A DNA stretch of 64,000 nucleotides from a virus, in IMG/VR virus record IMGVR_UViG_3300017963_000201, positions 80,960 to 144,959 of that record; one strand, written 5' to 3'. Of this stretch, positions 8,406-38,528 are shown in pieces. Every line of letters starts with the position of its first letter. Position 1 is the first letter of the stretch. Position numbers and translations under genes: made by a program. The notes beneath the pieces were generated by a model. It saw nothing but the letters and a program-made list of their open reading frames with translations. It was not told where the DNA came from and did not search any database.

Positions 8406-8608
8406 TTAATAACTCCAATCAAAGTCAGGCATCCTATCACCATATATCTCGTAATAATCTGTCAGATAAATGGGTATATAGGAATGTCCATTTCCTCAAT
8501 CGATTCTAAAGTATCCCTAACATGCTCTGGCAATATATCTAGGGCTTTGTCTAACGATATAGTAATACTTACACTATCTTTTTGGGCAAATCTTGAGCGC
8601 ATCATCAT
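8406..8608 (-). pseudogene. AQ-tagged acidic protein, apparently frameshifted
   Basis: MMMRSRFAQKDSV... stops at TGA 8462; another frame continues LTDYYEIYGDRMPDFDWSY to a TAA overlapping the next ATG. Confidence 0.5.
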
Positions 8609-19813: not shown

Positions 19814-21670
19814 TTACCCCGATCCTGTTAGCAAATTTGCCCCTCCCTTCGGAATTAACCTCTCTATATTATCTATACGCTTCTTAGTATCCCCATCTAC
19901 AGGCCCATTACTCTTAATAAGATCTAGAACGTCTTGCACATGAACCCGATCATCCATTTCTGCTAGTTTAGAAATCTGGTCCTCCAGATCCTCTGCAAAT
20001 TCTTTAGTAATCGAGCTTTGCTTCGAAGCCCCAGGTAAGGGCAAAGGTGATGCCCCACCGCCTCCACCGCCCCCAGGGGCACTTCTAGGGGCTCTAGGGG
20101 CCGGTCCTGGAGCTTCCTCACCTTCCTCCTCACTTTCAGCTTCAGGGAAAAACTCAGGATGGTCTACTACGTATTGTCGCTCTTCTTCCTGATTCTTACG
20201 CTCAACATCCAGGTCAACACCCGCACCCTGAGAGTATGTTCTGTCAGAAAGAATACCTCTATCCTTAAGATCTCGCCACACACCCAGGATAGAAACATCT
20301 TGACTTGGATCTAGGTTTTTGCGCCACTTAATAGTAGGTACCAAAGGATCTTTAGGTCTTTGTACTCTGATCCTGTTTTCTAATTCTTTTTCTGGGGTCT
20401 TATAAAAATCGTGCATTTCCGCAATAGGAACACAAAGTTTCTTTATGATCCACTCTTGCTCAAAAAGCATACGGATTGAAGCCAACCTTTCAAGCAAGGT
20501 CTGAAGACCCGCAATAGCAGCCGCGAATGAAGCCTCACCTATCAAAAAGCTCTTGGCAATACCCATCGCCAACAGTTTGATACGCTCGATAAAATCCCAT
20601 TCACGAGAGATCAATAAAACCCTATCGCTTACTCCGACTAACTCAACACTTAAAGCATTATGCGTGATGATGGCAGCCAAAGGATCCGACTCTGCCAAAC
20701 TTAGCTGATACGCTAAGGCTTCTTCGTCTTCTTGACTACCTAACCACCCTGTCGCCGGATCACCCAATTTGAAAATTCTTAATGGAGCTGCATGTCTTTG
20801 TGCAATTGCCAAAGATGCATTAACTACAAAGTCTTCGTACATAGTGGTACGATATAGTCTTGTATAGAAACTCGTTCCACGTATATCTGTAGAATTAATC
20901 TTACGCGCTAGAAATGTCGTGTTCAAAGACTCCAAAGGAATAGCTCGATTCATCCTAAAAGCATTCATAATGTCTCTAGGTATGAATTTTTGAAGTCTCC
21001 TAAACAAAGGGTCCTGCGCGTTTACGAGTTTTCGAATCTCTGGCGTTGGTAATAACCAAAGCAAAGGTTGTTCTACCGCAAGACCAACACCTTCAATTCT
21101 TACGTAATCTGGATCATGCGGAATAACACGCGCCCATATACCTTCTGTAGAGTCAAAGATAGCATGCAGAATAAGCTCTCCGGTTATCAAGTAATCCCTG
21201 GTAAAGCCCGCGAGCTTTGGGACTAAGTTTAACTTATTAAACATATCCTCGTAAACTTTTTTTATTCCTGGATCATCAATACCAACTAGGTCGAAAGCAG
21301 ACCATGGAAGCTCAGAATACATGTCAGTTGCAATTGACACAACCGCGTCCCTGCGATACATCTCACGCCATACAGCATTTGCTAATCTTCTATTCCTTGG
21401 AAAGTAATATTTATCAGGGGTAGACTTTCTATAATCGTAAAAAAGAGGGGCCTGTGCAACACTGTTACCCCCAGTATTCTCACTTCCATAAGCGTTTGTT
21501 GCGTTCAATTGCCCACGCTTACGCATAGAGCTGTAAAGGGTAAAGCTGTGAGGGGTTTTTGGTGGGCTCTCTACAGCACTACTCTTTTCGTATGGTTGTT
21601 GATCTGCTTGTCTTCTGGGATCCCCATCTTTACCAGGCACAATTAATTGTCCTGTTTTTTTCATACCCAA
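19814..21670 (-). CDS. portal protein
   Basis: 618 aa; 'D.YSELPWS.F', 'RDY...GE', 'RGTS...R', 'P.RIFKLGD...GW' as in Bxz1-type portals; low-complexity acidic/Pro/Gly C-terminus. Confidence 0.85.
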   Translation of the reverse strand: MGMKKTGQLIVPGKDGDPRRQADQQPYEKSSAVESPPKTPHSFTLYSSMRKRGQLNATNAYGSENTGGNSVAQAPLFYDYRKSTPDKYYFPRNRRLANAVWREMYRRDAVVSIATDMYSELPWSAFDLVGIDDPGIKKVYEDMFNKLNLVPKLAGFTRDYLITGELILHAIFDSTEGIWARVIPHDPDYVRIEGVGLAVEQPLLWLLPTPEIRKLVNAQDPLFRRLQKFIPRDIMNAFRMNRAIPLESLNTTFLARKINSTDIRGTSFYTRLYRTTMYEDFVVNASLAIAQRHAAPLRIFKLGDPATGWLGSQEDEEALAYQLSLAESDPLAAIITHNALSVELVGVSDRVLLISREWDFIERIKLLAMGIAKSFLIGEASFAAAIAGLQTLLERLASIRMLFEQEWIIKKLCVPIAEMHDFYKTPEKELENRIRVQRPKDPLVPTIKWRKNLDPSQDVSILGVWRDLKDRGILSDRTYSQGAGVDLDVERKNQEEERQYVVDHPEFFPEAESEEEGEEAPGPAPRAPRSAPGGGGGGGASPLPLPGASKQSSITKEFAEDLEDQISKLAEMDDRVHVQDVLDLIKSNGPVDGDTKKRIDNIERLIPKGGANLLTGSG

Positions 21671-22321
21671 CCATACCCTTCCGGTTTAGTGTCCCTCAAT
21701 ATGTCTACGCAGTTTTGATCATGATCATTGGCAATACATAAATCACAGTTTGTTAAACCAGAGAAAGGGCAACGCCCATTCCTTAACTTAACATAAACCT
21801 GCAGCTTACATGGAGGATTGTATATAACATTATGTATTCGCCGCCCTCTCCATTGCTCTAACATAGAATTTGCTCCCCGCAATCCTCTCGATGGTATGCA
21901 TATTCACAGGAGCACCGCCATTAAAGACTGCTTGCAATACAGCTTCCCGTGCTTGATTACAGGTAAAGCCGTACTGTTTTAGTTTTTGTACGGAATGGGT
22001 AATAGGTCCCAGGAAGATAACCTCTTCCCTAGCTACCAAAGTAAACATTTTACTAACTCTGTCATAGAATAATTCCATAACATCCTCCAGGCTATAATAC
22101 AAAAATTACTTATGTTTTTGTCACGGCAGTAATCTTGGTTATGTACTTTCTACAAAATATTTCAAAGTCTTTTTTATTTATATGTATTCTATAGTTCCCA
22201 AAATTAAAAGATACGTAAGGCTCACCTGATGCCATCACGGGAACATAAGCAATACATGCACCACGCCCAACGCATTTTAGCGTTCCAGGCTTTTCTTCTT
22301 TGTAGACCGCAGCTCTGAGCT

Positions 22322-23635
22322 TCATCGTCTTCTTGCTAACCGCATAGCTTGGCTAACCCTCTTTGCCTTTCTTCCGGTTTCAGAAGCTACTAAAAATTGA
22401 TCCATTATACCTATACCCTCTTCAACCTCATCTATGCTTTGCTCAATCCCAAAGATAGCATTCTTTACAGAATCCCACACATCCTTGAACCAGTTTTTAA
22501 CCTTGGTCCATACCTGCGCATCAACCCTATAACCCATTCGGGTCTTTCCTGGTTCAATAATCGCAAACTCTTTTTGTAGCTTCTCTTCTATAGTATCGTT
22601 TGCCATCCTAAATAATTCAATCTCTTTATCCACCTCTTCTGCAATCTTTGGGAATTTGTTTTTCAAAAAGTCTAATACATAATTCATCTCTTCAATTGGG
22701 CCTGCAGGTACTGGGGTACTCAACACTTGGGCTCTTACGGCTACAATTTTCTCTTTAAAGCGTCTTACAACCACATCTTCAAGTTTAGACAATGTTTGTT
22801 GTTCATTGCTCAAAGTAGCATAGATAGACTGCATAATCTCGGTACGTTTCATTTGCTTTTTCTTTAGCTTTTCTTGAGCTTCCTTCATCATTTCTTTTGC
22901 AAGATCAACTTCGGATTGGATATTATCAATATCTTGCCCCAACGCTTCTACCCGATTTAATGCTTGTTGCGCTGCTTTATCAACTTCCTTCACATCCATA
23001 AACTTCTCAGGAATAAATTCACCGTAATCATGAGGAGCCCTTCTAGTAGGGGTTGTTCGTTCCTTAAACGTCTCAGGCATATCTGGTTGATCTGGGGCTG
23101 CCATAGGTGCGCCAGGAAGCGTAATACTAGTAGTTGGTCCCTTGAGTTTCTTTTGACTTTGTACGTAAATCTTATGAGCTACTTTTCTTAGCAAGTAAGC
23201 CTTTCTTAATAACCTAGATGCATCAAAGTCAATCTGATTGGCCTTGACTTCCAGCTCTTTCTCTGGTTCCATCCCTACTACTACGTGATTAGCCGATCTG
23301 CGAATCAAAGGATATACATCTTTGTTATTAAGCCTTATAAGCTGCCCCTCTTTGAGACTCTTAAATGGACCTTGATTTAATGTCTCATGGGCATATTCTT
23401 GGGTTTGTTTAATTACGCTATTTACAATCTGAGGCGAGAAGCCCATGTCCTCTAGTAAAGCCTCTATCTCTTCCCACGCCATGCCCATGAACCAATAAGA
23501 CTTGGCATGCTGAAGAGCATCGTCTTTAGCAGAGTAGTTATCTTCCTCTTGAGCTACCCTGTTTATGGGCTCTTTATTTATAAGCCTTTGGGCCAGTCTA
23601 AGAGTTTCTTTAGGGTACTTATTGGTCAAGCGCAT
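22322..23635 (-). CDS. coiled-coil protein with several AQ motifs, putative inner head protein
   Basis: RLAQ, RVAQ, VRAQ, RVSQ; long heptad region. Confidence 0.6.
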   Translation of the reverse strand: MRLTNKYPKETLRLAQRLINKEPINRVAQEEDNYSAKDDALQHAKSYWFMGMAWEEIEALLEDMGFSPQIVNSVIKQTQEYAHETLNQGPFKSLKEGQLIRLNNKDVYPLIRRSANHVVVGMEPEKELEVKANQIDFDASRLLRKAYLLRKVAHKIYVQSQKKLKGPTTSITLPGAPMAAPDQPDMPETFKERTTPTRRAPHDYGEFIPEKFMDVKEVDKAAQQALNRVEALGQDIDNIQSEVDLAKEMMKEAQEKLKKKQMKRTEIMQSIYATLSNEQQTLSKLEDVVVRRFKEKIVAVRAQVLSTPVPAGPIEEMNYVLDFLKNKFPKIAEEVDKEIELFRMANDTIEEKLQKEFAIIEPGKTRMGYRVDAQVWTKVKNWFKDVWDSVKNAIFGIEQSIDEVEEGIGIMDQFLVASETGRKAKRVSQAMRLARRR

Positions 23636-23645
23636 AGTTAAACTC

Positions 23646-23864
23646 CTATAGGTTATCTAGCAGACTATCAATCTCAGAAGCGTGCTGTTGAATCTCAAAC
23701 ATGTTATCCCGTAACATATTCTCAAGACCGGGATCTAGCTCTACAATCTTATTACCTACCTCTTGAGATACTTCACCGGCAAGCATAGTAATGGCATAGA
23801 GCAAATCTATAATGTTGGATTTAACTTCATCTGGATCGTAGTATTCTTGGGCTTTGATCTTCAT
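23646..23864 (-). CDS. AQ-tagged small acidic protein
   Basis: N-terminus MKIKAQ; GAGGAG RBS. Confidence 0.7.
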   Translation of the reverse strand: MKIKAQEYYDPDEVKSNIIDLLYAITMLAGEVSQEVGNKIVELDPGLENMLRDNMFEIQQHASEIDSLLDNL

Positions 23865-23876
23865 AAATAAACTCCT

Positions 23877-24860
23877 CTAGTGTTGATAATCAATAACACC
23901 TAAATTTCTAGTATACATATCGTCTATATCATAAACCACTAATCCGTCATTAGTAATCACAGCAGAAGGATCAAAATGATCCCCAAACCAATTAACCAAT
24001 TCATAGTTGTCAAACGCTTCTGCAGATTCTACTATATTTTTTGGGTTAAATTCCATACTCAAAGATTTAATAGAATCTTCATAATCATCATCCGGGTTTC
24101 CTTCTCTCTCTATGTATTCTTCTATGTATTCTGGTAAAATGTTTCCACTAAAAAAGTCTTCAGTAATAGCTTTAATCACTAGATTTAACATTTGTGGCTC
24201 ATTCATATTAATAAGTCTAGCATTAGGCTTTGGCTGAATAAGCCATACACCACCATCTTCAGTAGAGTACTGAATACCAACATCCCAACTTTTGCTGCAT
24301 AGGATAATGTGACCCGTATTTAGGTCGTGTCTACTAGACCTACCATGGATCCAAACATCTTTAGGTAAGGGATCAAAAGGATTTATATCCTGTATACCTA
24401 CGCTACCAAAAAATCCTTGTCTTAAATACTTTCCCTTTCGTATAATTTCTACCAATTCTAACTCATCTTCACGACCCGTCATAGGGACGATATAAACTGT
24501 TCCCTGCTCATCTATGTCTTCGCAACCATCGAACCCCATTTTTTTACCACACTCACCCCGCTTACCCTGAAGCCACCACGAATCTTCCGCGTCTGCTTTG
24601 TCGTGATACTCTGATGCTCTTCCATCAAGTATCTTTTCTGCAGTTTCTAAATCAACCCTAAAGCGTTCTGCAATATCGTTAATAATCTCTTCGTCGTATA
24701 ACTTATACACAGGCACACAATCGAAATCCGCTTCATACACATAAACAGTAGAACTTTCTGTCATCATATAAATACCATCAGAGAAGAATAAACAATCACC
24801 CGCTACACCAAAAGGGTTAATATCACCCTTCTCTATAGGTTCTGGGCTAGTATGAATCAT
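23877..24860 (-). CDS. AcrIF11-like ADP-ribosyltransferase domain fused to a second ART-like domain
   Basis: HTSPEPI...GV.G..LFF...W.LQ..RG.....G.....DEQGT matches my recollection of the AcrIF11 pattern; second domain HG...S....V..QY...G.V. Confidence 0.65.
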   Translation of the reverse strand: MIHTSPEPIEKGDINPFGVAGDCLFFSDGIYMMTESSTVYVYEADFDCVPVYKLYDEEIINDIAERFRVDLETAEKILDGRASEYHDKADAEDSWWLQGKRGECGKKMGFDGCEDIDEQGTVYIVPMTGREDELELVEIIRKGKYLRQGFFGSVGIQDINPFDPLPKDVWIHGRSSRHDLNTGHIILCSKSWDVGIQYSTEDGGVWLIQPKPNARLINMNEPQMLNLVIKAITEDFFSGNILPEYIEEYIEREGNPDDDYEDSIKSLSMEFNPKNIVESAEAFDNYELVNWFGDHFDPSAVITNDGLVVYDIDDMYTRNLGVIDYQH

Positions 24861-25113
24861 TACTACTCCTCAGGAGTAATAACATCTAGCAAATCGTTTA
24901 GCTGCACAGACATTTGATCCGCATGGTCAGCTAAAGAATCCGTAATCTCTATCGATGCTTCACCTTGATCCAATAGCTTCTCTATTTTTTCTTCGTTCAA
25001 CTCTTCTTTGGCCATACCTAGTAGCTTTTCTACAGAGGCTACCAAAGATCCAGAGATCTCTTGGATCTTAGTTTTCAATTCCATTATGTTTTTGATTTGT
25101 GTTTCCATTTTTA

Positions 25114-25632
25114 TTAATAACTTCTATTGCGTGGGGCTTCAGGCATTAAAGCACGATCAAATATATCCCAGGCTTTTACCCAAATGTGCTCCGGGATAGC
25201 TTCTAATTCTGATCTAGAATATTTATCAGATAAATGATCTAAAACAATTCCCCAATCCTCTAGCAACTCTTCTTTTACCACCCAAGATGCAAAATTATCT
25301 TGTAATACCTCAGCCAGCTTTCTTGCATCCCAGTCCCTCTGCGCCCATTTTCTAGAACTATACTTCTTCCGAATCTCCTCCCATTCCGACTCATCCATCT
25401 CATAATAATTCGAATCATCCACTTCGTAACCATCAGCTTTTAGCTCTTCTACCAAACCGGGTTTATCCATAATAATAGCGTATGCTATATCCATATCACT
25501 GGGTGCTTCCCACATAGTATCCATGATACTAAATTCATATACAGCCTCTTCAATATCGAAAGTATGGACAGTTACGAAACCGTCGTCATGGTCCATATTA
25601 TCTAAATAGATTTTGAAAGCATTGCGTTTCAT
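25114..25632 (-). CDS. two-domain acidic protein with internal RKWAQ linker
   Basis: N-terminus MKRNA; internal SSRKWAQ. Confidence 0.7.
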   Translation of the reverse strand: MKRNAFKIYLDNMDHDDGFVTVHTFDIEEAVYEFSIMDTMWEAPSDMDIAYAIIMDKPGLVEELKADGYEVDDSNYYEMDESEWEEIRKKYSSRKWAQRDWDARKLAEVLQDNFASWVVKEELLEDWGIVLDHLSDKYSRSELEAIPEHIWVKAWDIFDRALMPEAPRNRSY

Positions 25633-25635
25633 GTT

Positions 25636-26208
25636 TTACCCCTTTATAATTTCCCACAGATCTCTTTTGGCCTGATTAACATCTTCACGATCTACGTCGT
25701 AATCTTTAGCATGATTATTTATATAATCCAATGCATACTGATAAAATTCTTCTGGGTAAGCATCGCATGCGGCATCCTCAGTAATTAAAACAATACCACC
25801 ATACGTATGTCCCTCCCCTAACTCTGGGTGATCCTCCAAAACTTTTGCTCTAGCATAAATATACGAATCGCTAAGTAATTCCAGTAACTGTATACTATAA
25901 ATCCCAGAAAAATTGGTAGATATGTCTACCTCAGATCCATCATAGTATGCCTGTGCAGCTACGTCTTCTATCTGATCAAAAAAGTTTTTTGCGTCATCGG
26001 GGTGATTAAACAGCATAATCCACCCATATTTTCCTGCATCCAGGTCCTTTTGATTATACTTAACTACAGCGGGTTCTCTAGGAAATAGCGCGTAAACCAA
26101 CCCATCCTCACTAGATAAAAAATCATCTTCTGGAGTACCTAAAGCATAAATCTCATTGAAAGGAATTTTCTTCCATTCTGCTGCCTGTGCTCTAACTTTA
26201 CGGTACAT
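25636..26208 (-). CDS. AQ-tagged acidic protein
   Basis: N-terminus MYRKVRAQ. Confidence 0.7.
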   Translation of the reverse strand: MYRKVRAQAAEWKKIPFNEIYALGTPEDDFLSSEDGLVYALFPREPAVVKYNQKDLDAGKYGWIMLFNHPDDAKNFFDQIEDVAAQAYYDGSEVDISTNFSGIYSIQLLELLSDSYIYARAKVLEDHPELGEGHTYGGIVLITEDAACDAYPEEFYQYALDYINNHAKDYDVDREDVNQAKRDLWEIIKG

Positions 26209-26210
26209 TC

Positions 26211-26885
26211 TTACCCCCTTTTATGTGCTGCCTTATCCACTCTATTGTCACGCAGGATTTCATCCAAAACGTCTTCAGCTTCCTCATCTGACATTTCCAG
26301 GATCATAGTCTCTAGCTCATCATCTGGACCTGTAATTTGAAGCACCCGATCCAATTTATCTAGCACCTCGGCTTGGAACGCAGAGTTATGTCTTAGAGCA
26401 GCACCTTTTCCCTTAGGTATTTTATAAATACCATCAGCCGGGCTTATGCGTAACCCACAAGGACAACCAACACTCTCGTTTTCAATAAACCCACCAACAC
26501 CATACTCCTCATAAACAAAAAGAGGACGATCACATATAGGACAGCGTTTGTTGTCTCTCACGTACTTAAAAATTTTTCGGGCTTCCCTATATCGGGTTTC
26601 CCAATCTTGGGTTTCCAGATCTTGGAACGCGGCATTATGTCTTCGATAACCTCTACGTCCACTAATAGGAATTGGGGGGTTACCCTCATCATCTACCCAA
26701 TCTTCTGCACAGTCTTCACAAAGGTACACCCAACGATCTCCTGTATTACCAAAGGGGTGATGCATATACGCTTTGTACTTTGCTGGATTCTTATTGCTCT
26801 CATCGTAGTACAAACAATTCTCACACAGTTCTTGTCCTGCACTATGTCTTCGATAACCTCTACGTCTTTGTGATCTGACTCTCAT
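26211..26885 (-). CDS. three-domain protein (two Cys/Zn domains + helical acidic domain) with repeated basic linkers; start revised to MRVRSQ
   Basis: RRGYRRHSA, RRGYRRHNAAFQ, LRHNSAFQ separate the domains. Confidence 0.7.
   Translation of the reverse strand: MRVRSQRRRGYRRHSAGQELCENCLYYDESNKNPAKYKAYMHHPFGNTGDRWVYLCEDCAEDWVDDEGNPPIPISGRRGYRRHNAAFQDLETQDWETRYREARKIFKYVRDNKRCPICDRPLFVYEEYGVGGFIENESVGCPCGLRISPADGIYKIPKGKGAALRHNSAFQAEVLDKLDRVLQITGPDDELETMILEMSDEEAEDVLDEILRDNRVDKAAHKRG
26636..26866. repeat. 24-bp exact direct repeat (26636-26659 and 26843-26866) encoding the RRGYRRH linker
   Basis: TATGTCTTCGATAACCTCTACGTC occurs twice. Confidence 0.9.
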
Positions 26886-27110
26886 AATTTCTCTCTCTCT
26901 CTCAAAAGTTATTAAACTTAGTTCCAATATCACCCAGTATAGAAATTAACTTTTCCATACTTTCTTTGAGAACTTTATACTTCTCTAAATCTTCTACAGG
27001 TATATTATCGTCTTTAGCTGCTAATTCATTTAACTGTCGATACTTTGAATCTAATTCAACTAAAGATTTAGCAACAGTAATATTAAGTTCAGCAATTTTT
27101 TGATTAATCA

Positions 27111-27644
27111 TTAGGACACTTCAACAGAAGAATTAAGCTTAATACCAAGGGCTTTGCAGCTACCACCAGGAATTTCCAAAACACCACGAACCCTATCACA
27201 AGACCAATGCTCTCGGGCACCCGGTTGGGCATTATGGATAATCTTGGCCACCTTGAGACCTAGAATGCTATCCTTGATAAACAGGATGTCTATTGGAAAG
27301 CCCACAGAGCCCATATGGAACGTTACGTGGTCCCCACCAAAGGGAAACCACATCCCCTCGTCTTCGGCAAGGCTAGAGACCACTTCTAGCCCTCGGGCTT
27401 TTTGCCAAGCCGTCGAAGCTACGGTCACCCTAAAATTGTAATCATTTACCTTGACACGCTTGGTAGCTTTTGGTAAGAAGCTAAGATTCCTGACAGGCCA
27501 CCAAGATCCATCCACATAGGCATAGATACTCGATGTGGCTTGGACTATACCCTGCTCACCGTTTGGCAAAATAACTTCCATACCTTTTTCTATAAAAGGT
27601 ACATGGGGTCTCTCAGGATTTCTAAAGTTTACTTTGTGGCGCAT
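27111..27644 (-). CDS. DUF192-domain protein with N-terminal SH3-like domain
   Basis: VA.T...KARGL....L..DEGM.F.F, FHM..V.FPIDILFI, VLEIPGG.....GI. Confidence 0.85.
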   Translation of the reverse strand: MRHKVNFRNPERPHVPFIEKGMEVILPNGEQGIVQATSSIYAYVDGSWWPVRNLSFLPKATKRVKVNDYNFRVTVASTAWQKARGLEVVSSLAEDEGMWFPFGGDHVTFHMGSVGFPIDILFIKDSILGLKVAKIIHNAQPGAREHWSCDRVRGVLEIPGGSCKALGIKLNSSVEVS

Positions 27645-27767
27645 TCATTCCTCCACAGTACCAAGGTTTCTGGTATTCATAGAATCCACGTCATAAACTA
27701 CAAAGCCCTCGTTTGTAACTACCGCCGATGGATCAAAAGGTTGTATATATTCCAACGATTCAGTCAT
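27645..27767 (-). CDS. 40-aa fragment paralogous to the C-terminus of 23877-24860
   Basis: FDPSAVVTNEGFVVYDVDSMNTRNLG vs FDPSAVITNDGLVVYDIDDMYTRNLG. Confidence 0.7.
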   Translation of the reverse strand: MTESLEYIQPFDPSAVVTNEGFVVYDVDSMNTRNLGTVEE

Positions 27768-28009
27768 AGTAATTGCTTAAGCAAACCATTCTTCGCCAAA
27801 TTCCTCGGCATATAATAAAGCCATTTCGTTAAGGACCTCCTCAAAAGAATCCACACGAATAAAAGAGATATTAAAACCTAAAGATTTGGCTAAAGCCTTA
27901 ATATCTCCTCTATCTCTTAGGTTGCGACCTGACCAATCGATTACAAACTTTGCTTGCCCATTCTCACTAACCACGGCCACATCCATACCAGTGTCTATGT
28001 ACGCTTTCT

Positions 28010-28318
28010 TCATCCCAACACATCCTGTTCCCAATATTCTCCACCAAGAGCATTAATAACACGCTCTTGTGTTTTATTAATTATGTCTTTCACAAAGTCA
28101 AACTCCGCACCTTTAGGGTGAGTGAATATAGAATTAATGTAATTACCGACCCGAAGGGCAGCATCGTCTAAGATTAACTTTGTAAGTATACTCACATGAT
28201 GTTCTACATAATCCTTCCATTCTTGATCCGTAAGGTGAGCATATTCATCCTCAGTATCAAATATGCCCGGTGTATTGTACTCTCTTTGGGCTATTCTATA
28301 CATGTTACGCTCCCTCAA
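28010..28318 (-). CDS. AQ-tagged protein
   Basis: MYRIAQ near N-terminus. Confidence 0.65.
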   Translation of the reverse strand: MRERNMYRIAQREYNTPGIFDTEDEYAHLTDQEWKDYVEHHVSILTKLILDDAALRVGNYINSIFTHPKGAEFDFVKDIINKTQERVINALGGEYWEQDVLG

Positions 28319-28544
28319 TCAGCAAGATAACATTGTTGAACTTTCAAACCGTTCTCATTTAGGGCATCCCATATGTCCTCAAATTCTTCTTTTGACATAG
28401 GATCTGAGAATTCTACCTTATTAGGGCCTACCATTACATCGTCCCTCCCATAATCATCCAAAATGTCATAGAGTAAATCCTCAGAACCGGGACTAAGGTA
28501 CCAAACAAATTTAAAGTAGGTACGATCTACTTCGTTGGGCATAA

Positions 28545-28748
28545 CTACCCTCTCAATCCTCGAATAGCCCTTCTCAGATATAAACTAGCCAACCTCCCTG
28601 TACCTTTGCCCCTTCCTTCCCCTTCACCGTACCCAGGTCCATCCTCTTTGCATGGACCTGTGTTTCTATTCCTACGACCACTTCCGGGTTGCCCTCTACC
28701 CTTACCAGACCCATCTTGCCTTGGTCCCCTTTGTGATCTTCTAAACAT
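28545..28748 (-). CDS. Gly/Arg-rich small protein (start revised to MFRRSQ)
   Basis: GGAGGA RBS; DGSGKGRG...GPC...GPGYG; C-terminal SLYLRRAIRGL. Confidence 0.6.
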   Translation of the reverse strand: MFRRSQRGPRQDGSGKGRGQPGSGRRNRNTGPCKEDGPGYGEGEGRGKGTGRLASLYLRRAIRGLRG

Positions 28749-28749
28749 T

Positions 28750-30708
28750 TTAATCCTCCACACTTTCTAATTTTGATACATCACCACCATCTGATTCATA
28801 AGAATCAAATGTCTCAAGAACTAATTCACCATTTTCATATAACCCATCTGAACCCCTAGTTAGATAAGGACGATCCCAACCCATCTGATCACACATATCA
28901 TAAAATTGATCTTCAGTTATAATATAGGGATCCTATGAGTAATGATCGCTCACAAGAACATACTTTTGATCTTCTTGAGCTAGAATTCTTAATGCTTTAT
29001 TTAGTTGTCTTTTTGCACTACCCTTTAATACATCCCTGTCACCATTTTCATAGATCACTTCTACCCAAACATCACCTTTACCCAGCACTCTTTCAAGTGA
29101 CCTTTTTGCTTCTAATGCAGTTTCTTTATCCCAAGTTGTAATATAGGCATCGTCACAATATAGCTTTTTTCCTGCATCTTCTAATTCATAACAAACATCT
29201 TGATAATTTCCATCAATTGCATTTTTACCAACGACATGGTATTCTACTACATTTTCCTTTTGTGCTTTCATACCTTTTCTCCTTGAGGCTAATTCTAATG
29301 GTCCCTCATCAGTGTCTTCAAATTCTACAAACTCACGATACTCATGAGTCTTCTCAGGACCCTTGGTGTCTTCTTTAGTTTTCCAAAGTGCATCCCAAAT
29401 AGATTTCAGATGATTCCAAGTTGAGCTTTGTTTTACCGCTTGGATCCATTCTTTGAGATTAGGAAGTTTTGGTTCCCATGCTTGCAATGCCCTAATCAAC
29501 TCGTTTTGCTCCCCGGCAAAATCCAAGGCTTGAGCACCCCTACTTAGCATATCCGATATACTTCTGTTTTTGTACATCGGGATGTCAGTAGGCCCGCTCC
29601 AAAGATCGTCCTCAACCTTGGTATAGTTTCGGTTCTTTACTTTGACGTTTGTACCAATTGGAGCTTTATCTACATCAACTTGGGCTCTTCTTCTATTTGC
29701 TCTTTGTACCGTAACAGGATAAAAGCCGTACCCCTCTAATTTTTGTTCTGCTTCCTGTAAAGAATCTGCGTCTACTATATTACCGTCCGCATACTCAACA
29801 AAATAATATGGCCCTTTCTTTATAATCCAGGCATCTTCATCTTCGGTACGCCACTTGCTAATAGTCTCTTCGGGAGCAAACTCTTTAATCACTTTGCCGG
29901 TATTAGCATCAAAAATACTTAAATCTTCTTTGAGCACATCAATGTCTTTTGCCAATAGAGCATAGGCTTCTTCAGCTTGCTCCAAGTTATCATAATCCTC
30001 TTCGTACAGAATCTCACCATGCCCCTCCCCCGGAACTAAGCCAGTAATCGCTACCGTATATTGATCAGGGTATTTTTCACTCCTAGGTGGCACATGGAAA
30101 AAGTCATCGTGACCTTGGGCTCGCTTACGCATAACGGATCCTTTCTTTAGTTTTCTACGCTGTTCCCGCAATGATTCCACTTCGTTTTGCGGAAGCAAGG
30201 TACGCAACTTCCTAAGAGCACTTCCGGGAGATGGGTTATCGATAGCCAAAAATAAATCGATTGCTTCCTGTATCTCAGAATCCTTAATGAGTTGGGCGCT
30301 CTCAAACTTATCTATATACCCACGCGCTAAATTACCAACATACGCATCTATAGTCTTATCCCCCCGATCCTTTGCTGCAAACCACCTATGCTTACCATCT
30401 AGTATAATAACATCCGGAGGAACACCATGGGTACCAAACTCGCTCTGAATTCTTCCTACATTATTAATATTAATATCTACTATTATAGGACCTTCTGACA
30501 TAGATTTGCCATCTTCAACCAAGGTAACCGGAGCTACAGAGTCTATAGGTATAGTATCAAGATAAAAGACATCACTTTCGATCCAATAATCAGCAAGATC
30601 CTGCGCGTCTTTACCCAAGTTGTAATACTGATCAGCTAAAATTTGTGCTACTTGATCTTTATCTATACTATTAGACAATATTACCTTCCTCGTCGAATTC
30701 GTAGTCAT
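28750..30708 (-). CDS. multi-domain polyprotein-like ORF (N-terminal ParB-like domain), interrupted by TAG at 28933
   Basis: IILDGKHR ParB/Srx motif; linkers RKRAQ, RRRAQ, RGAQ, MKAQ, RILAQ; frame continues 60 codons past TAG to a TAA just before the next ATG. Confidence 0.7.
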
Positions 30709-31294
30709 TTGCGATAAGTGTTTCTGCTATAGCTTCATCTGATGTTATACTTTCGTACGCATCCTCTAGTCTCTCATAGATCTCATCTGCAAAGTCTCTA
30801 GCATCGTCTAAGACGGCATCCTCTAGCATATCAGCTTCTCTGTTTAATCCGGCTAAGTCTTCTTCACTTAATTCGTATTCAGAATCTAGCCATTGAATAA
30901 ATTTTTCCATATTGTCGCCGTCTATGTGCATTGTCTTAGAGTGGTTATAAAAACCAGCATGATAAATTTTTGCTCCCTCGCTTATTTGATCTATAAACTC
31001 CATAAAAGTAGGAAACTCATCTGCATGTTTAGGAATCCAATCGTCATATGAAACACTGCCTACCCAACAGGCACCATCACCCTGAGACCAAAACCCAGAA
31101 AAATATATGTCATCAATATAAAATCCTTTTTTCTCTCCGTCTTCTTTAACCCAATCGTACACGTAATCCCACCAGTCTACTAAATCTGTATTGATATCTC
31201 GATTATTCTCTATAGCTTTTTTTTGGGTTTCAGGATCCAGATCTTCAAACTTCTTCCCTTCTTGTGCAAAGCGCCTCATTTTAGCTCTCCTCAT
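30671..31294 (-). CDS. AQ-tagged member of the 'YFSGFWSQGDGA' family (often auto-annotated as antitoxin of a TA stability system)
   Basis: MRRFAQ then FEDL....Q.KAIE, YFSGFWSQGDGAC, TSDEAI.ETL.ANDYEF.E.G. Confidence 0.65.
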   Translation of the reverse strand: MRRAKMRRFAQEGKKFEDLDPETQKKAIENNRDINTDLVDWWDYVYDWVKEDGEKKGFYIDDIYFSGFWSQGDGACWVGSVSYDDWIPKHADEFPTFMEFIDQISEGAKIYHAGFYNHSKTMHIDGDNMEKFIQWLDSEYELSEEDLAGLNREADMLEDAVLDDARDFADEIYERLEDAYESITSDEAIAETLIANDYEFDEEGNIV

Positions 31295-31967
31295 AGCCTA
31301 AATAAAAATAGTCTTCGAGTAATCTGATTACTTCGTCAGCCGCTTTATTTCCAGGCATACCCATACCACCAAAATAGGTATCCTTAAAATCGCTGATGTC
31401 AGGCAACTCTTCCAATACCCATTCAGGTGCAGAATTTAAATCGATACTCCATCCGGCAGGGATCCTAGATACATCAACGTAATCACCTGTAGCATAACCA
31501 ATGATTAATATGATATCACCAAACACACCCTGTAAAATTAATTCGAAATAGGCTAGTCCAAGGATACCATCATTCGTGTCTGTCTCAATAGGGCTAAAAA
31601 CATAGTCATGCCAAATACGGTCATACTTTAAATAGTCATCTAGTAAACTACCGAGGTGGTCTATTAATGATTGAAGTTTACTTACAGGGTCCTCTTTGGC
31701 TTTTTTATTAATTGGAAACTCTTTACCCTCTATGGCATAGGCTAAGTTATATTCTCCAGTATTAATATCCTGAAAAGCTATAAGGGTACCGGGGATATCC
31801 TGTAAGGTCATCTCATCTTTGAGATCCTTTTCTATTTCCTCAAGGGCATCCCAAGAATCCGCTTCTACATCCAAGAAATAAAAATACCCATCTTTAGTAT
31901 TCGGATCGTGATACTTACCCGGTTCCTTAAGAATAGCTTCGAGGGCTTTTTTAATTTGATTAATCAT
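31281..31967 (-). CDS. acidic two-domain hypothetical protein
   Basis: Coupled by overlaps; internal NKKA linker. Confidence 0.6.
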   Translation of the reverse strand: MINQIKKALEAILKEPGKYHDPNTKDGYFYFLDVEADSWDALEEIEKDLKDEMTLQDIPGTLIAFQDINTGEYNLAYAIEGKEFPINKKAKEDPVSKLQSLIDHLGSLLDDYLKYDRIWHDYVFSPIETDTNDGILGLAYFELILQGVFGDIILIIGYATGDYVDVSRIPAGWSIDLNSAPEWVLEELPDISDFKDTYFGGMGMPGNKAADEVIRLLEDYFYLGYEES

Positions 31968-32428
31968 TAATAATCTTTACCGGGCCAGGTCGTGACAGGA
32001 CCTAACCTTTCGGCTTCGCCTACAATGTCATCGTATACGTTTCCCGAATCATACCCTTGAGATTCGACAAACTTTTCCACTTTGTTTATGGCTTTAATCA
32101 TTCTGTCATAAAGCCTTTCTTGATCTCTAACCCTTGCACCTTGGCTTCCCAGATATTTTCTTGTAGCCTCTACGGCATCATCTAGCATTTTTTTTGGTGG
32201 TCTTTTCTGCGCCTTCTTCCTTGTAATACCTGTCCCATATTCTCTGGGTGTTTTCCAGGGAGGCAAAAACATATCGTCTTTAAAATCATCATGGACATCT
32301 TGCTTAATCATCCAATGCCCAGTTTGGTAAGGCCAATTAACCGAAGGTAAACCATCCAATACATCTTGAGGTGTTCTTGTAGCTTTGAGTGTACGTATAG
32401 CCCGTCTCAAGTAAACTAAAGATTTCAT
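31967..32428 (-). CDS. tagged hypothetical protein
   Basis: N-terminus SLVYLRRAIRTLKA; internal RKKAQ. Confidence 0.65.
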   Translation of the reverse strand: MKSLVYLRRAIRTLKATRTPQDVLDGLPSVNWPYQTGHWMIKQDVHDDFKDDMFLPPWKTPREYGTGITRKKAQKRPPKKMLDDAVEATRKYLGSQGARVRDQERLYDRMIKAINKVEKFVESQGYDSGNVYDDIVGEAERLGPVTTWPGKDY

Positions 32429-32437
32429 AGTAAGCTC

Positions 32438-34087
32438 CTAATCGATATCCAAGTCTTTTGGAAGCATATTCCTAATCTTCTGTTCAACGAACTCAGACAT
32501 TTCTATACCAACCTCTTCCAAGGCTTCATACTGCTCATTGGTTAGCAAATCTTTAGCTACATCTTTTGCTGATATCTCTATGCCGGACAACTCAGAAAGT
32601 TCTTCGGCAATTTCTTCAGCCCTTAATATTCTTTCCTCTGATCCACCCCAATAACTTGGGTATCCGAGAAGAAGGGACCACAAAGATCCTATAGCATCTT
32701 CTTCATCCTCTGGTATTTCCTCACCCCCAGCATACCTAATAACCTCTCTAGCACTTTTATCCCATATAATTTCTGTTATGGGGATATTCTCAAAACTACC
32801 ATAGGCATTCATAAGATTTTGGTAATTTTCCATCATACTACCAATATCTACGTCACCCCCAGTGTAACCCCACCACCCATCTTCACTATAGCCAAAGTCA
32901 ATAAATTCTACACCCTCCCCACCATCCCACTTGAGTTGAATACCGCCATGCGTTAAATAGTCCACATCACCGTAGTTTACCCATTTATCTTTAATGGATG
33001 CTAATACCTCACCTATAGTTTTGGATCTAGGTTTGTCTTCGTATACGTCTTTATCAAACATCTCTTCTTGTTGTGCTCTAAGTCTTCTCATTGTTCTTTT
33101 TAGACAGGCTTTACTATCCAAAAAATCATCATTATCATCATACCCTAAAAAAATCCCGCACACTATACCACCAACTTCATTGGCTACTTCTTGGGCTTCC
33201 TCCTCTGTTTCATACCATTCTTCAGACATAGGGGAATTAGACCATTCTTCCCCAGTCCACACAGTGTTGCTGTCATCAGGATCTTCCACTACATATTTAA
33301 TAATCTCACCGGCAATGTGCCTCCTAGCATTAAAGTCTCGTATAGTTCCTCCTGATCCCTGACTATCTTTAACAACATCACCATTTTTTAAAAGCTGAAT
33401 AACATATTCATCCAAGCGGTCCCCATACTTATCTAGCATTTGTTGGAAGCGACCTTCAGGATCATTGTCTCCTCGTATGTTTTGCACCACTTGATCATTG
33501 AGGGTATCAATAACTTCTATTGTATAATTAGCAGCAGTTTTCCTACTCTCCATAGGGAAGCCCCCCAAGTAAGGATTACCAAAGTAGGCATCAGGGGACT
33601 GTGCAAGCCTACGACCTTTAATCTTATTCACGTTGGGATGCTTTACCATGTCTTTTACCTCTTTTTTGTACTTATCAGAGATTGGTTTTTTAGGTTGGTT
33701 TGGCTTCATAGGTAAACCAGAAGCTACAAGCCAAGTATTAATGTCACGAACAAGACGAGCATTTGTGATATGGTGCATCAGTTTGTCATAATCATCTTCG
33801 TAAATGCACCCCTGCTTATAAGCTATCTGCTCAAACTCATCCTGGAGATTTTCCAGTTCACGGTTTTGTACCTTGATACTTTCTGCAGCCAAACCCATGG
33901 TAAATGCATTTTGCTCCGTCTCACCGAGCTTAGAAAGCAGCCCAACATACCAAGACTCTTCTAGCTCGTTGTCTACAATATGAGCTAAAGCAATCTCCAA
34001 GGCTTGATCCACTGTGAGGTTCAAAACTTTGTCAAGATCTTCTGGGACAACAATTTCCGTAGAAGTGTCTTGGGCAGTGATACGCAT
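32438..34087 (-). CDS. multi-domain acidic polyprotein-like ORF
   Basis: MRITAQ, RRLAQ, RKTA, RRHIA, RRLRAQ separate acidic segments. Confidence 0.7.
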   Translation of the reverse strand: MRITAQDTSTEIVVPEDLDKVLNLTVDQALEIALAHIVDNELEESWYVGLLSKLGETEQNAFTMGLAAESIKVQNRELENLQDEFEQIAYKQGCIYEDDYDKLMHHITNARLVRDINTWLVASGLPMKPNQPKKPISDKYKKEVKDMVKHPNVNKIKGRRLAQSPDAYFGNPYLGGFPMESRKTAANYTIEVIDTLNDQVVQNIRGDNDPEGRFQQMLDKYGDRLDEYVIQLLKNGDVVKDSQGSGGTIRDFNARRHIAGEIIKYVVEDPDDSNTVWTGEEWSNSPMSEEWYETEEEAQEVANEVGGIVCGIFLGYDDNDDFLDSKACLKRTMRRLRAQQEEMFDKDVYEDKPRSKTIGEVLASIKDKWVNYGDVDYLTHGGIQLKWDGGEGVEFIDFGYSEDGWWGYTGGDVDIGSMMENYQNLMNAYGSFENIPITEIIWDKSAREVIRYAGGEEIPEDEEDAIGSLWSLLLGYPSYWGGSEERILRAEEIAEELSELSGIEISAKDVAKDLLTNEQYEALEEVGIEMSEFVEQKIRNMLPKDLDID

Positions 34088-34668: not shown

Positions 34669-36588
34669 CTACACGAACCTCTTTAGTCGAATAACTCTAA
34701 GGGAGGGCCTTGGGTTTGCTTTTCGGATCATACTAACTTTATGTCTGTCCTGTATAGCTTTGTTAGTAAAGACCCTCTCGGGAGTCTTTAGTAATCTATG
34801 AACCCCAATATAACATTGGATCATATCGTTCGATCCATCACTTCTGTGGTCTACCTTGACTCCATTATCTTGCAAACCTCTAAGCTCTCTTAGAGCTAAA
34901 GAACAAGGCATATTTCTGTGATAATAGGGATCTAGTGCGGGATGTTCTTTAGCCGGAAAACTTAATTTATTATTACGCATACTTTCTAAAAACTTAATAT
35001 GATCATCCCGATCTATATCTTTACCCATGGCCAAGATTCCTACATTTCTTAGCCTATCAATTTGTTCCATTGAATTCCAACGGTCATAGGATACATACTT
35101 AATAGTTAACTTCTTATGTAGCTCCAATATCAAATCTGTCATCGCAGGAAAATAAACTTCTCTTGGCTTTAGCTTTTGTTTATTCCCCTTGGGGATCGGC
35201 TTCAAAGTCACAGCACCGTCTATGATAACTTTATCTTCTTCGAGGTGTCCTATACATAAACAAAAGCTATCCTTCTTTTTTCCTGGATCACAATGTATAG
35301 CATACTCAGCTAAGTTTTTATATTTTACGTTTTTTATTTCTAGCCCAATATAACTAAAGATAACATTCCCAACCTTCATATCGAAGTACTTCTCACCATA
35401 ATCAAAAATAGAAAATCTAGTATTGTCTGTACAGGCTTCTATAATTCTCGTATCTCGAATAAAAGGATTCTCCGCACCAGGGGGGTTAGCACCGTAATCC
35501 CTTTCGGCACCCAAGGGATCATCCTCAAATTCGTCTGCCAGGTCCTCTTGAGTAATCTCAGGATTTGCTTCCCAGGTAGCTTTCCTAAAAGCAAACATCT
35601 TGTGCTGTCTTTGCGCTTGCTCTAACAATTGCATAATCTTATCGTCTTCAAACATCGGACTCGATATACTAATCATCCTGGCATCGGGTAAATTATAAAT
35701 ACCAAGCTCCCGTGCCCTTCGTACAGCAGAGCTAATCGTTCTAAGGGATCTCTTGAGTACCCTGTAGACTTCCTGAGCGCTTTTCTTACTGTCTCCCGTA
35801 TCAAATCTTGCCAGCTCGTCAATGATCGCAATCAGTCGTGTTTTACCGGCCAGGGAAGCTGAGTTAGAATGCAAAGCCTTCAAAGCTAGATTTTTATACT
35901 TGAAGTGGATTTCTTTGTCGGTTTCTTTATAGAGCTTACCTGTCTTGTACTTAGGGTGCGTCTTTTCTAAAGTCTGTAGCTTTTCTTTGAGATCCTGAAA
36001 CCAGGGGCTCTCTTCGTAAAAAGCCCTAAAGTGCCCCCAGACCGTCTCAGAAGCCTGTTGGGCACTCGTAGCGACAAAGGCTATATCCAAGGTCTGCCTT
36101 TTGATAACTCGTAGCCTAGACTGAAGATCTGGGGTACAGAGCGCGTCGTGGACTAGCCCAGCAGATAAACAACCTATGGTCACACCCTTGCCCGAGCGCA
36201 TCCCCTCGCATCCAACGAATTCATTGTAGAAGCTCAGATCGTCTACTATATCTGATTTCTTTAGCCCACAATTTGGACAAACCTCATACTCAAATAATAT
36301 CTGATCTCTTCTGGGAACATCATTTATAGTACGGATTCTCTGTACGTCGTTACACATGGGGCAGAGTAATTCTAAGAAGTCCCTAATTACTTCGTACTGA
36401 ACCGGCCAAAGCTCAGGACCATTAAGGTATTCTGGAGATTCTATAAAATGGATTACGTTGGGTGCGCGTTTGAGGGTGACAAGATCCGTAGTTACTAAGT
36501 TTGACGATTGAGTAATTTTGCCCTCAATCATGTCATCTAGATCTGCAAATAAATTATCTCTAGCTACATACTCCATATGACTTAACAT
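34669..36588 (-). CDS. terL: terminase large subunit
   Basis: Walker A GMRSGKG, Walker B IAIIDE, ISSP, TWEANP, nuclease HCDPG...D, YDRWNS, KVDH...GSND. Confidence 0.93.
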   Translation of the reverse strand: MLSHMEYVARDNLFADLDDMIEGKITQSSNLVTTDLVTLKRAPNVIHFIESPEYLNGPELWPVQYEVIRDFLELLCPMCNDVQRIRTINDVPRRDQILFEYEVCPNCGLKKSDIVDDLSFYNEFVGCEGMRSGKGVTIGCLSAGLVHDALCTPDLQSRLRVIKRQTLDIAFVATSAQQASETVWGHFRAFYEESPWFQDLKEKLQTLEKTHPKYKTGKLYKETDKEIHFKYKNLALKALHSNSASLAGKTRLIAIIDELARFDTGDSKKSAQEVYRVLKRSLRTISSAVRRARELGIYNLPDARMISISSPMFEDDKIMQLLEQAQRQHKMFAFRKATWEANPEITQEDLADEFEDDPLGAERDYGANPPGAENPFIRDTRIIEACTDNTRFSIFDYGEKYFDMKVGNVIFSYIGLEIKNVKYKNLAEYAIHCDPGKKKDSFCLCIGHLEEDKVIIDGAVTLKPIPKGNKQKLKPREVYFPAMTDLILELHKKLTIKYVSYDRWNSMEQIDRLRNVGILAMGKDIDRDDHIKFLESMRNNKLSFPAKEHPALDPYYHRNMPCSLALRELRGLQDNGVKVDHRSDGSNDMIQCYIGVHRLLKTPERVFTNKAIQDRHKVSMIRKANPRPSLRVIRLKRFV

Positions 36589-38279: not shown

Positions 38280-38528
38280 TTACTCTTTCTCCACAGGGCA
38301 TGTAACCATTACCGGCTGTTCATCAATAACCACATACTTAGGAAATACAGAAACCCCACTACCCTGAGAAAATACTAAATATACAATACCATTAATACAA
38401 GTTTCTTTAATAGGATCTCTTTTGGCTTTCGAACTCTTCTCACCTACCGGAAAAAACATAACCAAAAAAATTGCTACAATACAAACTACAATCATTAACT
38501 CTATCAGTGTAAATCCTCTTCTAGGCAT
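38280..38528 (-). CDS. prepilin-type N-terminal cleavage/methylation domain protein
   Basis: MPRRG|FTLIELMIVV class III signal peptide. Confidence 0.85.
   Translation of the reverse strand: MPRRGFTLIELMIVVCIVAIFLVMFFPVGEKSSKAKRDPIKETCINGIVYLVFSQGSGVSVFPKYVVIDEQPVMVTCPVEKE

Follow-up and report, generated by a model that had tools for sequence, protein, structure and literature searches.

The window analysed here comprises 64,000 nucleotides from an uncultured phage with a genome of about 180 kb. On its minus strand, the genes for the large terminase (34669..36588; phrog_17415, E = 1e-65) and the portal protein (19814..21664; phrog_16240, E = 2e-69) border, upstream and downstream respectively, a cluster of 20 genes, which are tightly packed and share their orientation with the head genes. 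A head-maturation protease (15351..16229; phrog_18299, E = 1e-40) and an HK97-fold major capsid protein (11997..13133; phrog_2522) are encoded on the same strand, with a scaffold-like protein of 440 amino acids (13960..15282) between them. The phage and its relatives carry the same tiny peptide, consisting of Met, basic residues and Ala/Ser-Gln, at the starts of about ten unrelated proteins, in the scaffold, and at module junctions of long proteins whose genes lie near those of the capsid.

Seven open reading frames between terminase and portal, all on the minus strand (start at the higher coordinate), begin with M-x(3-5)-[AS]-Q. They encode a multidomain protein of 549 amino acids with additional sites after residues 163, 243 and 339 (32438..34087, leader MRITAQ), a 202-aa protein of phrog_5162 (30671..31279, MRRFAQ), a basic, Gly/Arg-rich protein of 67 amino acids (28545..28748, MFRRSQ), a 97-aa protein (28010..28303, MYRIAQ), a 224-aa protein (26211..26885, MRVRSQ), a 190-aa protein whose leader, MYRKVRAQ, is longer (25636..26208), and an acidic protein of 72 amino acids (23646..23864, MKIKAQ). 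These N-termini had been quoted in a first-pass annotation of the window, and all seven were found as described, each behind a Shine-Dalgarno-like GGAG or GAGG located 5–10 nt before the ATG; its variants MKRNA, MKKA and MKLRAA are likewise present. Four of the seven leader ATGs are internal to the longest open reading frame. When genes were called independently on L004, a contig of 97% identity, five tag starts out of the seven were selected, including that of the 67-aa protein and three of the four internal ones; of the two other genes, one has a frameshift in L004, and the one for the 190-aa protein is missing and so was gained or lost recently.

Among the other cluster genes, a multi-module protein of 591 amino acids (28933..30708) lacks an N-terminal leader and contains six K/R-x-x-A-Q sites in its interior. 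A 177-aa protein belongs to the DUF192 family (27111..27644; Pfam PF02643, E = 1e-19), and a clade-conserved 437-aa protein with seven sites is encoded just upstream of the portal gene (22322..23635). The 327-aa protein of phrog_11282 (23877..24860), also without leader, has an ADP-ribosyltransferase-like N-terminal domain of the AcrIF11 / ART-PolyVal type, as had been suggested at first: PDB entry 8DWQ was matched at E = 7e-9, AcrIF11 itself (6KYF) just at E = 0.16, look-alikes of ART-PolyVal/AcrIF11 type were found in the Atlas, and there was no Pfam match of the domain at E ≤ 0.01. A ParB-like domain, which had also been proposed, was not detected in the cluster by Pfam and PDB searches; no MuF domain was found with Pfam, and no peptidase domain with Pfam or PHROGs.

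Genome-wide statistics were based on 145 kb and 256 called genes. [AS]Q occupied residues 5–6 in nine genes versus 1.29 expected (P about 1e-5) and occurred at expectation for all other positions from 2 to 11; six of the nine genes fall in the 20-gene cluster. In an unbiased scan of dipeptides by position, AQ and SQ at position 5 were not individually significant after multiple testing. The spacing of the leaders is uniform, with M-x3-[AS]Q in nine of eleven. BLASTP gave no pairwise similarity between the tagged proteins beyond the tag, in agreement with their earlier description as unrelated. Since the tag codons differ between copies (GCC/GCA/TCA, CAA/CAG, AGA/CGT/AGG), conservation is at the level of the protein.

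The leader had been regarded as a mark of the cluster. This holds for the seven genes above, but three more leaders at 57–60 kb had been missed: MRIKAQ on a 117-aa protein (56759..57112, minus strand), MYRYSQ on a 131-aa protein (57751..58146, minus strand) and, possibly, MKKLSQ on a 166-aa protein (59610..60110, minus strand), which is the weakest member because of its TTG start. A fourth leader outside the cluster, reported before as RSRFAQ, does exist as MMRSRFAQ at 8605, but the 47-aa reading frame which it opens (8462..8605, minus strand) is of doubtful coding capacity. Over the initial 80 kb of the genome there was no leader, and several members of the clade lack leader-bearing genes downstream of the terminase.

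In relatives, the leader is kept in the orthologues of two candidate cargo families while neighbouring residues diverge. Orthologues of the 117-aa protein start with MRILAQ, MIKKAQ and, in one variant, MRIYAK; the roughly 30 residues that follow are divergent. The 549-aa protein has a conserved N-domain (residues 1 to about 160), which stops at the site after residue 163, and its distant orthologues start with MK[ILV]xAQ. Of 38 representatives of the N-domain family (clusters at 50% identity), 13 start with M-x-[ILV]-x-A-Q, 11 of them with MK[ILV]xAQ, and 19 have Ala or Ser at residue 5. When 13 picked members, 12 of them picked because they carry the leader, were aligned, A5 was invariant, Q6 was present in at least 90% and residues 7–15 were variable. 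In the 97-aa protein, MYRIAQ is replaced by MYRISQ in L004, an Ala-to-Ser change which keeps the motif. Unrelated proteins of L007, a distant relative in which the cluster is expanded, bear MKRRAQ, MKRVAQ, MKISAQ and MKVQAQ. None of 119 phrog_5162 homologues from other sources has an M-x(3-5)-[AS]-Q start, and thus the leader of the 202-aa protein is an add-on in this phage.

Internal recurrence of the motif in cluster proteins, as noted at first, was confirmed by enrichment tests: [KR]x(0-2)[AS]Q was found 18 times versus 4.8 ± 2.2 in shuffled sequences (z = 6) and [KR]x[AS]Q 13 times versus 1.7 (z = 8), while control motifs with E, N, [GT]Q or Q[AS] were flat in the same proteins. Following [KR]-x-A, Gln alone was enriched (13 versus 1.2). 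The supposed switch from a basic patch to an acidic domain was not upheld, the mean charge of the eight residues after the site being −0.04 versus a background of −0.60, which is not significant. KKTGQ in the portal protein, which had also been listed, falls outside the motif.

The motif bounds modules which differ from relative to relative in their order and in being fused or split. Proteins of 1377 amino acids in L003 and of 1045 amino acids in L006 contain, fused and reordered, pieces which are separate open reading frames here; residues 156–320 of the 327-aa protein are homologous to a piece of the latter. The DUF192 domain is fused, as C-terminal module, to the leader-bearing multidomain protein in L003, in L008 and in the P0123 contig. 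In the 591-aa protein, a module of residues 390–472 is flanked by sites after residues 383 and 473, and elsewhere this module is preceded by [AS]-Q in seven of eight other protein contexts, six of them with A-Q. Of the seven sites in the 437-aa protein, that after residue 374 is [SAG]-Q in 7/11, and that after residue 29 is matched by hydrophobic-A-[Q/D/E] in its orthologues. In an AF2 model of this protein (pLDDT 61, i.e., moderate confidence), four sites were situated at loop/helix borders and the other three inside helices. The internal sites MRKRAQ and MRRLRAQ have a Met in front.

In the scaffold-like protein, a basic N-terminal helix ends with LIRAQ at residue 21. This site, already pointed out in the first-pass annotation, proved to be strongly conserved, its A-Q at residues 19–24 being invariant in 15/15 distinct orthologues. 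It lies where the basic helix gives way to a hypervariable linker, Pro/Ala-rich or acidic, which in at least six orthologues has another K-x-A-Q at its far end. In other phages, the head protease has the scaffold as a substrate. The protease itself was recognised by PHROG 18299 "head maturation protease" alone; no Pfam protease family was matched at E ≤ 0.01, and comparison of its profile with T4 gp21 (hhalign) gave a probability of 0.1%. H88, H115 and S169, in invariant columns of the alignment, are candidate catalytic residues. The K-C-A-Q ascribed to it is present at residues 22–25, but [AS]Q occurs at this site in just 49 of 84 homologues; K22 and A24 are invariant, and the next two residues vary (AQ, QQ, SQ, SK). 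Since Ala outlasts Gln here and at site 29 of the 437-aa family, where Gln alternates with Asp or Glu, either of two registers is conceivable for a cut. Major capsid proteins are classical substrates of head proteases; the capsid protein has RLFSQ at residues 47–51, and the SQ is not conserved, the two columns being N/D and N/D/A in 115 orthologues.

Present, enriched, specific in position, conserved in relatives and placed at module borders, the motif is supported as a selected, clade-wide trait of head-module proteins. The explanation which we prefer, with belief and doubt in about equal measure, is that the K-x-A-Q peptide would be a site for the head-maturation protease and would mark head-internal proteins, in a system resembling the capsid-targeting sequence (CTS) of T4. 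We infer cleavage at the motif, with the head protease as the agent; the core K/R-x-A-Q (basic-x-x-[Ala/Ser]-Gln) would be recognised by this enzyme of the clade, and the predicted cut would be either after Gln or between Ala/Ser and Gln. Proposed sites are both ends of the low-complexity linker of the scaffold and the module junctions of the "polyprotein-like" proteins between terminase and portal; a minimal form, Met plus 3–5 residues plus A/S-Q, would stand at the N-terminus of modules which have become separate genes. Prohead proteases are active only inside the assembling prohead, and therefore the proteins bearing the motif would be located within the head; trimming or separation of their parts would take place in the prohead, and delivery with the DNA would follow. 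Set against this reading are the capsid protein, the protease's own site, the helical sites of the 437-aa protein, the clade members lacking a leader gene downstream of the terminase, the columns in which Ala is better conserved than Gln, and the brevity of the leader.

That the short leader itself loads its protein into the head, acting as the T4 sequence does, is a more tentative proposition, in our view doubtful. We consider it rather unlikely that the phage has a head-maturation protease of a family assignable to neither the T4 nor the HK97 type, with a Gln-linked K-x-A-Q specificity, and that five residues after Met suffice for capsid loading of any protein, perhaps by protease capture, where the protease, held in the core of the prohead, would grab its own substrates. 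If true, the clade would assemble its set of injected proteins by free fusion, splitting and addition of modules behind a minimal tag.

Alternatively, the motif could be a cleavage linker only, with the leaders as leftovers of polyprotein junctions, retained after modules had turned into genes of their own, and with loading through other parts of the proteins or without any signal. The fusing and splitting of modules between relatives would fit, as would the Met-preceded internal sites, which resemble fossil starts of fused genes, the shortness of the leader and its lack in several cluster proteins, including the ART-like 327-aa and the 591-aa proteins. We hold this to be improbable, since the conservation of the leader across deeply divergent orthologues and its uniform spacing speak for selection on the N-terminal form itself; moreover, the leader of the 202-aa protein belongs to a family which is devoid of it elsewhere. 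Encapsulins load their cargo via cargo-loading peptides, and in a similar way the motif might be an uncleaved docking peptide, a strand or helix cap, for the scaffold, the portal or the interior of the shell. Its conservation and N-terminal position, the capsid protein without conserved site and the location of some sites in predicted helices are consistent with docking, which nevertheless appears quite unlikely: module borders and either end of the scaffold linker are enriched in internal copies, a placement that fits processing better, and residues after Gln are not conserved.

Still another agent might cut the sites: the polyproteins could have a domain that processes them, or a protease of the host could act, perhaps once the proteins have been injected. 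Polyvalent proteins often bear their own peptidase domains, and processing after delivery is possible (PMC5512222); also, the head protease had no assignable fold in our searches. We rate this as very unlikely, considering that neither Pfam nor PHROGs showed a peptidase domain in the cluster and that the motif is invariant in the scaffold. Finally, that there is no common function at all, but chance, composition, paralogy or a codon preference at translation starts, is hardly credible: basic residues behind Met are common in all genes, and AQ and SQ each failed the multiple-testing threshold, but grouped [AS]Q is enriched solely at position 5, the internal enrichment has flat controls, the tagged proteins are not paralogues, their tag codons vary and the motif is conserved in relatives.

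Several known systems can be compared with the preferred explanation, that of a protease site marking head-internal proteins. Assemblin of herpesviruses cuts after a conserved Ala (A|S) which has a hydrophobic or basic residue two places ahead of it; here, Ala is the most conserved residue in several columns and Gln is specifically enriched after Ala. We know of no proven capsid-targeting peptide as short as the leader described here (4–6 residues). In T4, the internal proteins IPI–III and Alt carry the CTS, which is removed by gp21 (Mullaney & Black 1996, cited in PMC10052503; review PMC9026906). Both systems have a short N-terminal leader common to unrelated proteins, a leader-end motif which recurs in the scaffold, and genes situated with the head genes, among which a head-maturation protease is encoded. 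Unlike the CTS, which has 10–19 residues and the motif [LI]-x-E, the leader here has 6–8 residues and ends with basic-x-x-[AS]-Q; the protease has no detectable sequence similarity to gp21 (MEROPS S77), and the capsid protein lacks the motif.

In phiKZ and SPN3US, the scaffold, the portal, the capsid protein and ejection proteins are cleaved behind A-X-E by gp175 and gp245, respectively (PMC10052503, PMC5694885), the AXE sites of SPN3US gp245 being described for scaffold, portal and ejection proteins (PMC10052503, PMC9026906). These are likewise large phages with one short motif on many head-internal proteins, for which cleavage is predicted here, and with multiple sites per propeptide. Their propeptides are mostly 111–254 residues long with Glu at P1, compared with minimal leaders and a motif ending in Gln here, and their processing was seen by mass spectrometry. 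The antirestriction proteins DarA, DarB and DdrB of P1 are head-packaged and partly processed by proteolysis (PMC9024508, PMC5512222). Dar packaging needs N-terminal information, and head-internal cargo as well as processing tied to head morphogenesis would be shared features, both being predicted here; there is no sequence similarity between the two sets of proteins. To our knowledge, the Dar proteins have no common short motif.

For the polyvalent proteins which phages and conjugative elements encode, packaging and injection have been predicted (Iyer et al. 2017, PMC5512222). A term search of that paper did not return a short inter-module or N-terminal motif like the one described here, and Pfam gave no MuF, peptidase or other domain named there as polyvalent. 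Like the polyvalent proteins, the proteins here are multi-module, are encoded beside terminase and portal, have modules which are shuffled, fused and split between relatives (as in the 1377-aa and 1045-aa fusions), and probably include one ADP-ribosyltransferase module of AcrIF11 / ART-PolyVal-like type.

The source contig (IMG/VR) comprises 144,959 bases with a completeness estimate of 79%; its final 64 kb form the window, and nearly all genes of the window are carried on the minus strand from about 7 kb onward. Head genes were identified by PHROG profiles, i.e., large terminase (34669-36588), portal (19814-21664), head-maturation protease (15351-16229) and an HK97-fold capsid protein (11997-13133), all on the minus strand; a 440-aa low-complexity protein encoded between the protease and capsid protein genes was regarded as the scaffold. 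Rctr197k, NCTB, Yoloswag and PaBG, the nearest named phages, are large environmental or jumbo phages with terminase identities of about 30%. A sizeable clade of relatives was found in metagenomes, with capsid proteins 52-70% identical and contigs of up to 199 kb; near-identical contigs also exist, e.g., ENA ERZ27256796. A small ORF (38280-38528, minus strand) has a type IV pilin-like prepilin signal, consisting of a short basic leader, G-F-T-L-I-E and a hydrophobic helix; by these features its product looks like a phage-encoded pseudopilin.

The first-pass annotation had described short leaders (Met, basic residues and Ala/Ser-Gln) on seven proteins of the cluster between terminase and portal genes. 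All seven were confirmed, each with a Shine-Dalgarno-like sequence upstream. Four use an internal ATG that lies a few codons into the longest ORF, and the Shine-Dalgarno-like sequence falls within that extension. An independent gene call for L004, a 97%-identical ENA contig, gave the same tag start in five of the seven, including three of the four internal ATGs; of the remaining two genes the sixth is frameshifted and the seventh absent there. Since the tag codons vary from gene to gene, the similarity is selected at the protein level. Four further leaders were detected in the whole 145-kb genome (at 57112, 58146, 60110 and 8605), none of them in its first 80 kb. In 9 of the 11 leaders the spacing is Met, three residues and A/S-Q; this uniform minimal spacing suggests selection for the shortest peptide which would still fill the substrate pockets of the head-maturation protease.

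[AS]Q occupies residues 5-6 in 9 of the 256 called genes against 1.29 expected, six of the cases being in the 20 genes of the cluster, and each other position from 2 to 11 showed 0-3 occurrences. In an unbiased scan of dipeptides by position, which was restricted to the single genome because repeated orthologues confounded a clade-wide scan, both AQ and SQ ranked high when at position 5; neither individually survived 1661 tests, and thus the N-terminal statistic alone is only moderately convincing. Internal copies add independent weight. The suggested enrichment of [KR]x(0-2)[AS]Q within cluster proteins was borne out (18 versus 4.8 +/- 2.2 in shuffles); for [KR]x[AS]Q the values were 13 versus 1.7, four control patterns were flat, and of the residues following [KR]-x-A Gln alone was enriched (13 versus 1.2). 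A switch into an acidic segment at the motif, which had also been claimed, was unsupported on average. Shuffle tests on orthologue sets were inflated by relatedness, as seen with the capsid set, and were given little weight.

Several observations concern the turnover and variation of cluster genes. The proteins encoded by L004 are about 97% identical to those of the window; the MYRKVRAQ gene (25636-26208) is nevertheless missing from L004, which also has an unrelated 130-aa gene starting MRISAK in place of the 78-aa gene at 27777-28013. Both differences point to fast turnover. The L004 orthologue (4190-4260) of the MRRFAQ gene (30671-31279) contains a run of 8 A versus 7 in the window, which puts the leader and the first ~20 codons in a different frame from the body; the cause would be a sequencing error in the homopolymer or, alternatively, a slippage site. 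Directly after the terminase, a 165-aa protein (34090-34587, minus strand) has an N-terminus M-[FY]-K-[VI]-[RK]-N conserved in all relatives, leader-like in shape but with Asn at the end.

Comparisons with relatives showed where the motif is retained. In the scaffold, A-Q is invariant at residue 19-24 in all 15 distinct orthologues recovered around protease homologues; it ends a basic N-terminal helix and immediately precedes a linker that is hypervariable and either Pro/Ala-rich or acidic. At least 6 of the 15 have a second K-x-A-Q at the opposite end of this linker. The N-domain of a 549-aa cluster protein (32438-34087, minus strand) retrieved 38 relatives from 1.8 billion representative proteins; 13 start with M-x-[ILV]-x-A-Q (11 with MK[ILV]xAQ) and 19 have Ala/Ser at residue 5. 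An alignment was made of 13 picked members; as 12 of them had been selected for having the leader, it is no measure of family-wide conservation. In it neither Met1 nor Ala5 varies and Gln6 is almost invariant, while residues 7-15 differ in sequence and length. Orthologues of the 56759-57112 protein begin with MRILAQ, MIKKAQ or the variant MRIYAK, followed by unalignable linkers.

The terminase-portal cluster is likewise expanded in a 184-kb contig (L007) with a 48% identical terminase, where MKRRAQ, MKRVAQ, MKISAQ and MKVQAQ stand on mutually unrelated proteins; in several clade members no leader-bearing gene was found after the terminase. The 202-aa MRRFAQ protein belongs to the large family phrog_5162 (1334 matches), and 119 members from other sources among the matches listed have MRTI/MKTI-type N-termini without A-Q; as judged from these, the MRRFAQ leader was added in this phage. 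A second N-terminal pattern, M-x-x-[LI]-x-K/R-A-[IV]-x-x-L (e.g., MNWLKKAV, MKSLVKAI), recurs in at least 10 proteins of the terminase-portal cluster of this distant relative (L007/L016), and here in two adjacent genes (31281-31967 and 31967-32428, minus strand). Some versions continue into A-Q (RAIAQ), and the pattern may be a longer, helical form of leader.

In compact relatives, the terminase-portal interval contains only a 165-190-aa protein, one multidomain protein, usually with DUF192 at its end, a ~430-aa protein and 2-3 small genes. The multidomain protein appears to be dispersed over many ORFs in the window: segments of a 1377-aa protein in one relative match the window ORFs at 32438, 25114, 28933 and 27111, and those of a 1045-aa protein in another match 32438, 23877 and 28933 in a different order. 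Motif copies occur near the module borders. In the 549-aa protein the conserved N-domain ends at residue 155-164, with a site after residue 163. In the 591-aa protein (28933-30708, minus strand) the shared module 390-472 lies between sites after 383 and 473, and [AS]-Q precedes this module in 7 of 8 other protein contexts (A-Q in six), the flanks being different. Of 11 orthologues of the 437-aa protein (22322-23635, minus strand), 7 have [SAG]-Q at the site after 374, in a variable loop preceding a conserved helix, mostly with a basic residue 2-4 positions upstream; the site after 29 is aligned with hydrophobic-Ala-[Gln/Asp/Glu], and an acidic stretch follows. As to the expected coincidence of motifs with AlphaFold domain borders, an AlphaFold2 model of moderate quality for this protein (pLDDT 61) has four of seven motifs where a low-confidence loop meets a helix, and three within helices. 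A Foldseek search with the model gave no meaningful match. As a plausible alternative to addressing signals like the T4 CTS, the leaders may be retained polyprotein junctions.

Pfam and PDB searches of the cluster yielded two nameable domains, DUF192 (27111-27644, minus strand) and an ADP-ribosyltransferase-like domain; the other large proteins were without a match, and the ParB-like domain mentioned in the first-pass annotation was not recovered by these searches. The AcrIF11-like assignment of that annotation was supported: the N-terminal domain of the 327-aa protein (23877-24860, minus strand) is related to PDB 8DWQ (E = 7e-9), which is discussed in a preprint on the AcrIF11 ADP-ribosyltransferase (10.1101/2024.08.26.609590). 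The relation to AcrIF11 itself is weak, and look-alikes in the Atlas are of the ART-PolyVal/AcrIF11 type. Through this domain the cluster is linked to "polyvalent proteins", which are predicted to be packaged and injected (PMC5512222).

At the N-terminus of the protease K22 and A24 are invariant, and the following residues vary. With hhalign the protease profile gave no significant match to T4 gp21 or HK97 gp4; a PDB sequence search was likewise without a match, and by sequence comparison the enzyme would fall outside recognisable families. A 14-sequence alignment gave an AlphaFold2 model of the protease that was of too low quality for use (mean pLDDT 48). Since none of 96 homologues recovered afterwards is less than 44% identical, a deeper alignment was not expected to improve it. 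Invariant cysteines (C172, C174, C179, C182, C193, C213), directly following the candidate catalytic Ser169, represent a probable zinc-binding insertion in aa 172-213; to our knowledge, none such occurs in T4 or HK97 proteases. The capsid protein was discarded as an independent witness of cut sites, since orthologues have N/D-N/D/A in place of its SQ (aa 50-51), and no conserved [AS]Q was found among them.

Taken together, invariance in the scaffold, recurrence at module borders and retention at N-termini amid drift suggest that K-x-A-Q would most simply be the recognition site of the head-maturation protease, by analogy with other head proteases. Proteases of this kind act within proheads, and motif-bearing substrates would then be head-internal proteins. 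Gln is enriched after [KR]-x-A, and in the scaffold it does not vary. Cutting between Ala/Ser and Gln is possible, because K22 and A24 of the protease are invariant with varying residues next to them and because one site in the 437-aa family has either Gln or Asp/Glu. Herpesvirus assemblins cut between Ala and Ser.

If true, the motif should predict capsid-travelling proteins among the many unknowns of the clade, including the AcrIF11-like ADP-ribosyltransferase, and would serve as a tiny, portable tag with which foreign proteins could be loaded into capsids; interconversion of polyprotein and split-gene forms of one cargo set would also be shown. The principle of packaged and processed head cargo is already known from the T4 CTS, phiKZ/SPN3US and P1 Dar. 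Particular here, as read from the genes, would be the motif K-x-A-Q, a leader of very few residues, the clear interconversion of polyprotein and split genes, and a protease outside recognisable families. Comparable head-protease motifs are [LI]-x-E in T4 and A-X-E in SPN3US and phiKZ (PMC9026906, PMC10052503). In T4 addressing is done by the leader (CTS), a role which is putative here; if true, the "address and clip" of T4 would also hold in a clade of large uncultured phages that is new and widespread (contigs of ~199 kb at most), with a code which differs from that of T4 and is shorter.
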